A stretch of DNA of 64,000 nucleotides from an uncultured delta proteobacterium (GTDB lineage Bacteria; Myxococcota_A; Polyangia; Polyangiales; Houyiibacteriaceae), in assembly GCA_963699755.1 (NCBI GenBank), contig CAVOVB010000011.1, positions 1-64,000 on the forward strand, written 5' to 3'. The notes under the pieces are model-generated. The model saw only the letters and a program-made list of their open reading frames with translations, had not been told where the DNA came from and did no database searches. Shown one piece after another: positions 6,858 through 11,583 of the stretch. Position 1 is the first letter of the stretch; each line of letters starts with the position of its first letter. Made by a program: the position numbers and the translations under genes.

Positions 6858-8654
6858 TTGGCGCAAGATCTCCAGCACATCCGGAACTTCTGTATCATCG
6901 CGCACATCGATCACGGCAAGAGCACCCTTGCCGATCGGTTCCTCGATGTCACCGGGGTGGTTTCGGCGCGGGAGCAGAAGTCGCAGCTGCTCGACCGGAT
7001 GGAGCTCGAGCAGGAGCGAGGCATCACCATCAAGGCACAGGGCGTCCGGCTCCCATTCACCGCCGCCAACGGTGAGAAGTATCAATTGAACCTCATCGAC
7101 ACGCCCGGGCACGTCGATTTCAGCTACGAGGTCTCGCGGTCGCTCGCGGCCTGCGACGGAGCCCTCCTGGTCGTCGACGCGACGCAAGGCGTCGAAGCGC
7201 AGACCCTGGCCAACGTCTATCTCGCCGTAGAGAACGATTTGGAGATCATTCCGGTCTTCAACAAGGTCGACTTGCCGAGCGCGGACGTGGAGCGGGTGCG
7301 CAAAGAGGTCGAAGACGTCATCGGGCTCGATTGCTCCGAGTTGCTCGCCTGCAGCGCCAAAACAGGTGAAGGCGTTCGGGAAATCCTCGAAGCGGTCGTC
7401 CAACGGGTGCCTCCGCCGGAGACGGATGACAGCGGTTTCCTGCGAGCGTTGATTTTCGACACCTGGTACGACAGCTATCGGGGCGCCGTCTGCATGATTC
7501 GCATTAAAGATGGCACGGTCCGCAAAGGCGACAAGGTCCGTTTAATGGCCACCGGGGCCGAGCACGAAGCGACCGAGCTCGGTGTCTACACGCCATTTCA
7601 AGAGGAGGTCGACCAACTGGGACCCGGCGAGGTCGGCTACCTCGCCGCAAGCATCAAGTCACTCCAGGACGCCAAGGTCGGCGACACCATCACCTTGGCG
7701 AAGAACCCGGCCAAGGAAGCGCTCGCCGGTTTCAAGGAAGTCAAGCCAATGGTGTTCTGCGGGATCTTCCCGACGGACAGCGACCAGTACCCCGAGCTCC
7801 GCGACGCGCTCGAGAAGCTGAATCTCAACGACGCCGCGTTCATGTACGAGCCGGAGACGTCCGACGCGCTCGGCTTCGGGTTTCGTTGCGGCTTCCTCGG
7901 GCTCTTGCACATGGAGATCATCCAAGAGCGGCTCGAGCGCGAGTACAATCTCGGGCTCATCACAACGGCGCCGAGCGTCGTGTATCGGGTGCACACCGAA
8001 GAGAAAACTATCGACGTCGACAACCCGTCGCAGATTCCCGATGGTCGCATCCGAATCGAAGAGCCCTACTTCAAGGTTTCGATCCATGTGCCTGCCGAGT
8101 TCGTCGGCTCGGTGATCAAGCTTTGCCAAGACCGCCGCGGTGAACAACAGGGCATTCAATATGCTTCCCGCGAGCGCGTGATCATTACTTATTCGATGCC
8201 GCTCGCCGAAGTGCTCTTTGATTTTTTCGACAAGCTCAAGAGCGCCACCAAGGGCTACGCCTCGATGGACTACGAGCTGGCCGGGTACCGCGAGAATCCT
8301 CTCGTTCGCCTCGACATGCTGCTCAACGGCCAGAAGGTCGATGCCCTCAGCGCGGTCGTTCACAAAGACAAGGCCTACTACTTGGGGCGTGCGCTCGCCG
8401 CGAAGCTCAAGAAGATCGTGCCGCGACAGCAATACGAGGTGATCATCCAAGCCGCCATCGGCTCCAAGGTCATCGCTCGCGAAACCGTTCGCGCCCTACG
8501 CAAAGACGTCACGGCCAAGTGCTACGGCGGCGACATCTCGCGAAAGCGCAAGCTTCTAGAAAAGCAAAAAGAAGGCAAGAAGCGCATGAAGGCTGTGGGC
8601 AGCGTCGAGATTCCGCAGGACGCGTTTCACGCGATTCTCAAAGTAGACGACTAG
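6858..8654 (+). CDS. lepA: translation elongation factor 4 (LepA)
   Basis: [47 protein letters not shown]-terminal [18 protein letters not shown]. Confidence 0.98.
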
Positions 8655-9814: not shown

Positions 9815-10864
9815 CTACTCCTCGGGGAATACCGCATTCCAGTCGTTCTTCATCGAGACGATCAACCAACCCGACCCTTCCACGGCATCGAGCGCCTGGT
9901 CTAGCTTGCCCACACTACTGGCGCGATCATAGGCGTACTCACGCTCGGCGTCATCATGGTGGAGAAGGAGACCAAGCCGGGCCCCGCTGCTGCCCATTGT
10001 GGCCCACTGCAGCATCTCGAGGTCGCCGTCCGAGTTGCCGAACGCGAGAATCGGACGCCGCCCGATGTGTTTGTGAATTCCCACGGGCTTACCGGCCTTG
10101 TCATCGACGTGGTCGATGGCGGGCAGGCGCAGAAGCGAAGGTTTGCCAGCTTGAACCTCGTAACGCGTCTCGATCGACGTCCCGATCACCCTCTCTGGTG
10201 GAATTCCGTACGCTTCCTCCGCAAAGGTTCGAATGAACTCCACGGTGCCGCCCGAAACGATGAAGGTCTCGAAGCCGTTGGCCTCGAGGTACCGCAAGAG
10301 CTCGAGTTGGGGCTCGTAGACGAGCTTGGTGTATGCCTTCTCGAGCTCGGGGTGACGAGCGTCACGGAGCCACTCGGCGACGATCGTCTCGAAGAGCGTT
10401 GTGCTCATGCCCGTGTGTGAGGCGACGACGATTTCCACCAGGCCCCGCGTCCCAGCAGACACCAGGGCGTTCCGGTCCCCCTCGAGGATGGCCTTGAACG
10501 GCTGCTGGTCCTTCCATTCGGGGTGAACCTTCGCGAGGTCTTGGACGCGATGAAGCGCAAACGCCAGCTCGGTGTAGATGGGTTGTTCGACCCAAAGGGT
10601 CCCATCGTTGTCGAAGGTCGCTACACGCTCAGCTGGCTCGACATAGGCGGGATCGTCCGGGTCGGCCACCGCACGGACGAAGTCGATGATCCTGGCCTTG
10701 GTGGCATTGTCGTTCCACGAGGGGAGCGGGTCGACCTGCTCCTTCACGTTCGTAGCGGCGCTTGGACCCTGCACCCCCGGCGTCTGAGTGCTCGCGCAGC
10801 TCGACAGGAACAGGGCAAGGGCCAGGATGCTTGCCGGGCCTAAGCGGCCTGCGGTGAAAGTCAT
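9815..10864 (-). CDS. HAD-family hydrolase / acid phosphatase, lipoprotein
   Basis: HAD motif I FDNDGTLW, IVSGG, AFGNSDGD; lipobox FLSSC; start taken at MTFTAG. Confidence 0.88.
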   Translation of the reverse strand: MTFTAGRLGPASILALALFLSSCASTQTPGVQGPSAATNVKEQVDPLPSWNDNATKARIIDFVRAVADPDDPAYVEPAERVATFDNDGTLWVEQPIYTELAFALHRVQDLAKVHPEWKDQQPFKAILEGDRNALVSAGTRGLVEIVVASHTGMSTTLFETIVAEWLRDARHPELEKAYTKLVYEPQLELLRYLEANGFETFIVSGGTVEFIRTFAEEAYGIPPERVIGTSIETRYEVQAGKPSLLRLPAIDHVDDKAGKPVGIHKHIGRRPILAFGNSDGDLEMLQWATMGSSGARLGLLLHHDDAEREYAYDRASSVGKLDQALDAVEGSGWLIVSMKNDWNAVFPEE

Positions 10865-10997: not shown

Positions 10998-11042
10998 AAA
11001 AGGGTCGCCCGGTCGTTGGAGGGGGGGAGATACGACCGGGCG
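10998..11042 (-). terminator. terminator-like hairpin ending the candidate sRNA
   Basis: Perfect 11-bp inverted repeat CGCCCGGTCGT (11006-11016) / ACGACCGGGCG (11032-11042); minus-strand UUUU at 11001-10998. Confidence 0.6.
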
Positions 11043-11123
11043 GGGATTAGCCGGAGGATTTATGGGGGGGTCCGCCGGCGAAGTTCTTTTGTTGTTGCGT
11101 CGGGAGCGGCTTCGCTCTCAGAA
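10998..11123 (-). ncRNA. candidate small RNA with three stem-loops and two C-rich loops
   Basis: Own promoter, three hairpins, A/C-rich linker, final perfect 11-bp stem followed by ACCC-UUUU; no credible ORF. Confidence 0.65.
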
Positions 11124-11128
11124 ACTAC

Positions 11129-11157
11129 AATCTAAGTATTGGGACTGAACGCGTCAA
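11129..11157 (-). promoter_or_regulatory. sigma70-type promoter of the candidate sRNA
   Basis: Minus strand TTGACG (11157-11152), 17-nt spacer, TAGATT (11134-11129). Confidence 0.7.
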
Positions 11158-11193
11158 TGGTACCGCGCTAGGCGAAGCTGGATTTCCAGTGCA

Positions 11194-11583
11194 TCAGCTC
11201 ACATTTCTGTTCGAATAGAGATGCCAGGCACCGGCGCCGGCAACGCTGCCCACGAAGTCGGCGACGACATCGGCGAGCTCCGAGGATCGACCCGGCACGA
11301 ACGCCTGATGAATCTCGTCCGAAAGGCCCCAGAGCACCGACACGAAGACCGCAAACGCCGCGGTTCGCCAAGCCGAAGCAGACGGCCAGCTCCGCATCGA
11401 AGCAGCCGCGGAGAGCCAGCCTAGCACCGCGTACTCGACGAAGTGAATGCCCTTGTCGCGTAGCGGCAGGAATCGAACGCCAGGCACCTCGACCTCGAAC
11501 GACGAGATCACGAAGATGAGCGCCATATACAGAAGCGCAAAGCGCCACGGGTGAAGGCCCTTCCAGTACGAATCCTTGGTCAG
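11194..11583 (-). CDS. VanZ-like family membrane protein (probable CTG start; first ATG at 11526)
   Basis: VanZ motifs DKGIHFVEYAVLG and SDEIHQAFVPGR; frame open upstream to a CTG that overlaps the miaB stop and has a GGAGG SD. Confidence 0.82.
   Translation of the reverse strand: MTKDSYWKGLHPWRFALLYMALIFVISSFEVEVPGVRFLPLRDKGIHFVEYAVLGWLSAAASMRSWPSASAWRTAAFAVFVSVLWGLSDEIHQAFVPGRSSELADVVADFVGSVAGAGAWHLYSNRNVS

Follow-up and report, generated by a model that had tools for sequence, protein, structure and literature searches.

The interval between a vanZ-family gene and a HAD-family phosphatase gene in the window (the whole 64,000-nt stretch of DNA analysed) carries a conserved, single-copy, non-coding three-hairpin element on the minus strand. 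We consider it probable (about 0.7) that this element makes a stand-alone RNA of ~125 nt whose C-run loops pair with G-run ribosome-binding sites and block them without Hfq. Transcription would start from a sigma-70-type promoter, with a CRP-family activator predicted to sit at about -73.5 (or -62.5, -52.5). The two open C-run loops of the RNA would then pair with the G-run ribosome-binding sites of mRNAs and keep these from being translated, independently of Hfq and in the manner of actinobacterial 6C RNA, with surface-movement messages possibly among those blocked. The original prediction of a trans-acting C-loop sRNA fits the conservation, the covariation, the exposure of the loops and the lack of an ORF, while its targets are predicted. 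Judged from sequence, the unit is a candidate sRNA gene of 6C-like type, uncatalogued and confined to one genus, for which a CRP-type input is predicted.

The promoter, SL1, linker, SL2, SL3, ACCC and TTTT were each found exactly where the original prediction had placed them (Table 1), with a predicted transcription start near 11122. The proposed three-hairpin structure was reproduced by the predicted fold (z = -4.4), and none of 200 shuffles was equally stable. The SL3 loop consists of two CUCC anti-SD words flanking a C-run. The 3' end was borne out in part: SL3, ACCC and the U-tract are present, but they do not make a textbook terminator, and a terminator scan left SL3 uncalled because the four bases ACCC part the stem from the U-tract. 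Just one promoter-like site was found in 1.2 kb (shuffles, 0.2 +/- 0.4), and vanZ itself sits behind miaB at the locus.

Table 1 Features of the unit and its neighbours in the window.
Feature	Positions	Strand	Details
sigma-70-type promoter TTGACG-N17-TAGATT	11129..11157	-	TTGACG 11157-11152, 17 nt, TAGATT 11134-11129
SL1, small hairpin, sequence variable, without C-run	11102..11119	-	hairpin at 11117-11104; two-sided changes in 4/7 pairs; 83% of cells paired
A-rich single-stranded linker	11080..11101	-	unpaired in consensus fold; A-rich in 30 loci
SL2, loop CCCCCCCAUAAA, predicted seed 1	11050..11079	-	94% of cells paired; C-G/U-A swap in one pair
SL3, perfect 11-bp stem, loop AUCUCCCCCCCUCCA, predicted seed 2	11006..11042	-	99.7% of cells paired
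ACCC spacer and U-tract, predicted 3' end	10998..11005	-	AC(C/T)C(T/A) in 47/48 elements
CRP/FNR-type dyad TGTGA-N6-GCACT (predicted activator site; overlaps the stop codon of vanZ)	11188..11203	-	
vanZ-family gene, upstream neighbour (context)	11194..11526	-	PF04892
HAD-family phosphatase gene, downstream neighbour, outside the unit	9815..10864	-	PF12710, TIGR01488

BLASTN searches detected the unit in 32 of 36 genomes of the same genus, which we take to be the marine-sediment group SG8-38, and in none of 24 others. A covariance model built from 30 loci found it as a single copy in its own genome, in 49 of the 54 other genomes of the genus and in 0/33 genomes of 17 sister genera; 124 genomes from other families of the order and the vanZ/miaB loci of other genera gave no match. 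The proposed new myxobacterial family holds at genus level and not beyond it. Remote or diverged relatives may be missed because 22-38 of >1000 candidates were scored per genome; the divergent copy in genome G008 (30 bits) was still caught. The five genus misses look like assembly gaps: vanZ was not found in three of these genomes (G002, G024 and G206), in G004 the contig stops inside vanZ, and in G018 contig ends divide the unit. When 100 of 120 loci matching the pattern were scored, 99 carried SL3 only, at no more than 28.6 bits, and the remaining one was a copy from the genus, truncated at the end of its contig; inspected viral loci matching the pattern lacked the full unit. A looser two-C-run pattern, run on 401 genomes of the phylum, was dropped as too noisy.

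Mean pairwise identity among 47 elements was 0.92 for SL3 and the tail, 0.76 for SL2 and 0.72 for vanZ coding DNA, compared with 0.52 for the promoter spacer and 0.46 for the DNA immediately downstream of the unit. Outside the genus, vanZ mostly abuts the next gene or faces convergent lepA, as read by eye. The most divergent copy (L059, G008:C4:404539-404646) has no upstream vanZ that could be found, is followed directly by convergent lepA and ends in a canonical U7 terminator; it retains the promoter, dyad and SL3 C-run and has lost the SL2 C-run.

In the 30-locus alignment, 93.6% of cells pair, compared with 29-50% in slid control alignments, and 7 of 27 pairs show two-sided changes, giving the covariation that was sought. 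The 23 cells with two-sided changes were not equalled in any of 500 shuffles, a test that kinship inflates, and 9 of the 11 SL3 pairs are invariant. The minus strand is favoured by G-U/G-C/A-U interchanges; in 36 of 48 elements the opposite strand folds to a lower energy, which counts against a minus-strand RNA. These 48 distinct elements were chosen by a filter demanding SL3, TTGAC[GC] and TAnnnT, and their median fold z is -5.1. The C-run is unpaired with a probability of at least 0.86 in SL2 (47 elements) and at least 0.98 in SL3 (48/48). SL3 itself forms with a probability of at least 0.90 in 48/48, and therefore no competing fold is predicted. No reading frame is conserved across the 48 elements, in agreement with the earlier view that the interval holds no credible ORF. 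A small peptide was ruled out, with a 5' ATG in just 25 of the 48 and unrelated frames of 3-50 aa.

The -35 box TTGAC is present in 30/30 loci, with TAnnnT 17 nt away in 29 of them and a spacer of variable sequence. Upstream lies a dyad, GT(G/A)A-N6-N(C/T)AC, whose GT...AC positions are invariant in 48/48 elements; its left half overlaps vanZ codons, which weakens this conservation as evidence, while its right half lies beyond the vanZ stop in 40/48, and the dyad is retained where the stop has moved or vanZ is absent. The dyad stands 46 bp upstream of the -35 box in 44 of the 48 elements and 35, 35, 36 and 25 bp upstream in the other four, so that each change in length is about one or two helical turns. 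Helical-turn spacing is what a class I activator would be expected to show. With a dyad of GTG-N8-CAC type that keeps helical phase with the promoter, the site has the form of a CRP/FNR operator; two positions of its right half deviate from the CRP consensus. It also deviates at position 4 from the MrpC site, given as TGTYN8RAC in the accessible text of PMC4320627. In the unit's own genome, the CRP consensus gave 12 strand-hits in 0.56 Mb of intergenic DNA versus 2 in 4.8 Mb of coding DNA, a perfect palindrome being counted twice. The candidate regulator, encoded in 50 of 55 genus genomes, is a CRP-family protein whose recognition helix carries RETV; it would bind the dyad, and another dimeric regulator is possible.

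Two conserved tracts flank the dyad on the minus strand: a T-tract in the last vanZ codons (window 11212-11216), contrary to the GC-rich codon habit, and an A-tract just beyond the dyad (11182-11185). They are possibly alpha-CTD or bending elements. Elsewhere, near-perfect CRP-type sites cluster before lipoprotein, PKD-domain and Ada-like genes (G000:C3, about 226000-263000). The DNA directly before the CRP-family gene (L628-L639) is strongly conserved in 12/12 genomes viewed and contains a TTGACG box; autoregulation of this promoter is possible.

The conserved promoter boxes, their spacing and the phased dyad, all located between vanZ and the hairpins, count against the hairpins being merely the 3' end (a terminator or stabilising stem) of a miaB-vanZ transcript. 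Such a transcript end is favoured by the same stem sequence preceding U-tracts in unrelated GC-rich bacteria, by an alternative-terminator role proposed for C-rich stem-loops (cited in the accessible text of PMC6486639), and by RNA-run contigs. In three estuary metatranscriptomes, the only contigs come from relatives, are 90-95% alike or weaker and have a depth of 2-10; they span the promoter, covering vanZ, promoter and hairpins together, and are compatible with either the presence or the absence of a discrete RNA. However, the unit is also retained in G008, where vanZ was not found, and vanZ runs directly into the next gene in sister genera, and we consider a mere transcript end decidedly unlikely. 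The downstream side was likewise considered, since the original prediction had allowed for an attenuator or leader governing read-through into the HAD phosphatase gene. In 36 of 48 loci a same-strand HAD homologue does follow, and the ACCC spacer predicts a leaky terminator, but the HAD match lies anywhere between 21 and 1454 nt away (in 11 of the 36, by >700 nt), three loci have convergent lepA and no HAD (9 of the 48 having too little flank), and SL3 has no predicted competitor. Because the stems covary, the loops are open, no ORF is kept and the downstream DNA diverges at once (identity 0.46), such a leader is disfavoured and appears very improbable.

A third explanation accepts a real sRNA that would sequester a poly(C)-binding protein, as a decoy, rather than pair with mRNA. 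The C-runs are of low complexity, in two loops here and three in a sibling RNA described below, no specific extended target was found, and the SL3-loop 12-mer also ends a dispersed repeat of the genus. Against this, two CUCC anti-SD words are retained in the SL3 loop, G-run leaders are conserved within the genus, mRNA pairing has been demonstrated for 6C loops (accessible text of PMC6486639), and no candidate poly(C)-binding protein was identified. We regard a decoy as unlikely.

Candidate targets were ranked on rough gene calls for the unit's own genome (4682 genes), and no leader pairing score there beat shuffled leaders. Comparison with G014 (1.2 of its 4.5 Mb) gave 501 orthologue pairs, of which 8 and 6 fell in the top 5% of both genomes versus 1.3 expected; shuffled loops yield 6-9 conserved matches in the same pairs, as many as the real loops, and the excess reflects conserved G-richness, loop order not being what it tests. 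GGGGG is present in both leaders of six pairs, four of them within a stretch with GltC-, GltE-, CglF- and GltG-like genes (4/15 versus 2/486 elsewhere, the limits of this stretch having been drawn post hoc). The pilR-like leader carries GGGGG in 27 of 30 genus genomes versus GGGG in 0/5 sister-genus genomes. GGGG occurs in the pilC leader in 31/31 genus genomes versus 0/8 outside, two too-short loci being omitted, and GGGGG in the gltG-like leader in 29/30 genus genomes versus none seen in 4 sister-genus orthologues. This genus-versus-sister contrast is a single evolutionary event. A G-run also precedes a 3350-aa TPR gene in 28/28 genus genomes and the neighbouring cglF in 1/27, and the pilin leader is mixed (11/30 below the 5% line). 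For one loop, the pilus and gliding leaders take ranks of about 15-70 among 4681; the sibling RNA places most of them similarly, and the flank of loop 2 showed no covariation with the gltG leader in 27 genomes. Type IV pilus and gliding genes (pilR-like, pilC, gltG-like and the 3350-aa TPR gene, names that are best family matches mostly below curated cut-offs) would be the likeliest targets, as tentative, post hoc leads. Other candidates were rejected: mdh scored well in the unit's own genome but has GGGG in 3/39 genus leaders, ftsA/ftsZ was discarded with ftsZ at rank 1902 of 4680, and the crp leader is without a G-run.

A two-C6-hairpin descriptor matched one other place in the genome besides the unit. 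This second C-loop RNA candidate (G000:C8, about 7755-7900, minus strand; L570:2240-2400) lies between a clpP-linked gene and convergent sspB, and has three C6 loops, a canonical terminator and a conserved sigma-54-type promoter with about 270 nt of conserved upstream DNA. It was found in 46 of 54 genus genomes and 0/33 others, scores 29.5 bits with the 6C model, and could pair equally with the pilus/gliding leaders. In a broader scenario, which we consider doubtful, the genus gained these two unrelated C-loop RNAs, one under a CRP-family protein and one under sigma-54, as ribosome-binding sites before pilus and gliding genes changed from GGAGG to G-runs, giving a lineage-specific, Hfq-free, two-input surface-motility switch of 6C type outside Actinobacteria. 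Together, the unit, its phased CRP-type site, the sigma-54 sibling and the named leaders make a testable Hfq-less sRNA circuit in an uncultured lineage. A search for Hfq gave no match; the same search matched in 5 of 14 controls.

A dispersed palindromic, REP/MITE-like repeat of about 140-500 bp, frequently just past stop codons, was also observed (L506-L518 and L526-L533; worn copies at G000:C1:309810, C8:82800 and C5:94462). The 12-mer TCTCCCCCCTCC is common to its arm and the SL3 loop, and since the repeat was found via a loop search, this sharing is selected. More than 20 copies are present in G033, and no transposase was identified.

At the locus, Rfam gave only chance-level matches, none near a gathering score, in keeping with the anticipated novelty, and a literature search largely without subscription papers found no sRNA of this lineage. 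The named analogues, Pxr and the cuckoo RNAs, share features with the unit, but it is neither of them; the nearest known RNA is actinobacterial 6C. The unit resembles Pxr (RF01812, Cystobacterineae) in being myxobacterial and in having three stem-loops with C-rich loop sequence; in both, the last stem contains a GCCCGG/CCGGGC core, and 4 nt separate it from the U-tract. Pxr is described as having a sigma-54 promoter, a position behind pxrR/nla19 and its C-loop in SL1 (accessible text of PMC5568312 and PMC5684412), whereas the unit has sigma-70-type boxes, lies behind vanZ and carries C-loops in SL2 and SL3. The Pxr model (cut-off 80 bits) had no match at the locus, real Pxr loci scoring 82-129 bits, and the unit's model gave Pxr at most 16.9 bits. 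No Pxr match was obtained in any of 151 phylum genomes, so no inference is drawn on Pxr there. Direct targets of Pxr are still described as unconfirmed in the accessible part of PMC11928866. The alphaproteobacterial cuckoo RNAs likewise have adjacent hairpins with exposed, anti-SD-like C-rich loops, but these all read CCUCCUCCC (accessible text of PMC4615179), which is in neither loop of the unit in the 30-locus alignment.

The feature that names 6C, two adjacent stem-loops with at least 6 C per loop, is present in 44 of 48 elements, and a structural descriptor that recovers all 6 actinobacterial 6C loci is passed by 42 of 48. B11 of M. tuberculosis is a 6C RNA (RF01066). The loop words ACCCCCC and UCUCCCCCC and the CCC spacer before the U-tract are as in the RF01066 consensus, and the variable first hairpin and housekeeping-type promoter are shared. 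GlxR, a CRP-family protein, is reported near the C. glutamicum 6C promoter, in one replicate only, in the accessible text of PMC5014011. The unit differs in its unrelated stems, longer loops, A-rich linker and phylum; it was not found in Actinobacteria, its closest records being Polyangiales, Sandaracinaceae or Myxococcota MAGs. RF01066 found nothing at the locus up to E = 10 and nothing in homologue loci up to E = 5, and the unit does not reach the 47-bit cut-off, below which C. glutamicum's own 6C match also falls. Scored with the unit's covariance model, real 6C RNAs reach no more than 15.6 bits and unit members about 100-140; across 18 kb of actinobacterial DNA, the top match of this model is a 6C RNA, at 15.6 bits. 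Because the naming feature is present but the 6C model fails, we describe the unit as 6C-like in its predicted action and do not claim membership. Both descent and convergence are compatible with this relation, and the unit is relevant to the question of whether the 6C design was passed on by descent or evolved more than once among high-GC bacteria that lack Hfq.
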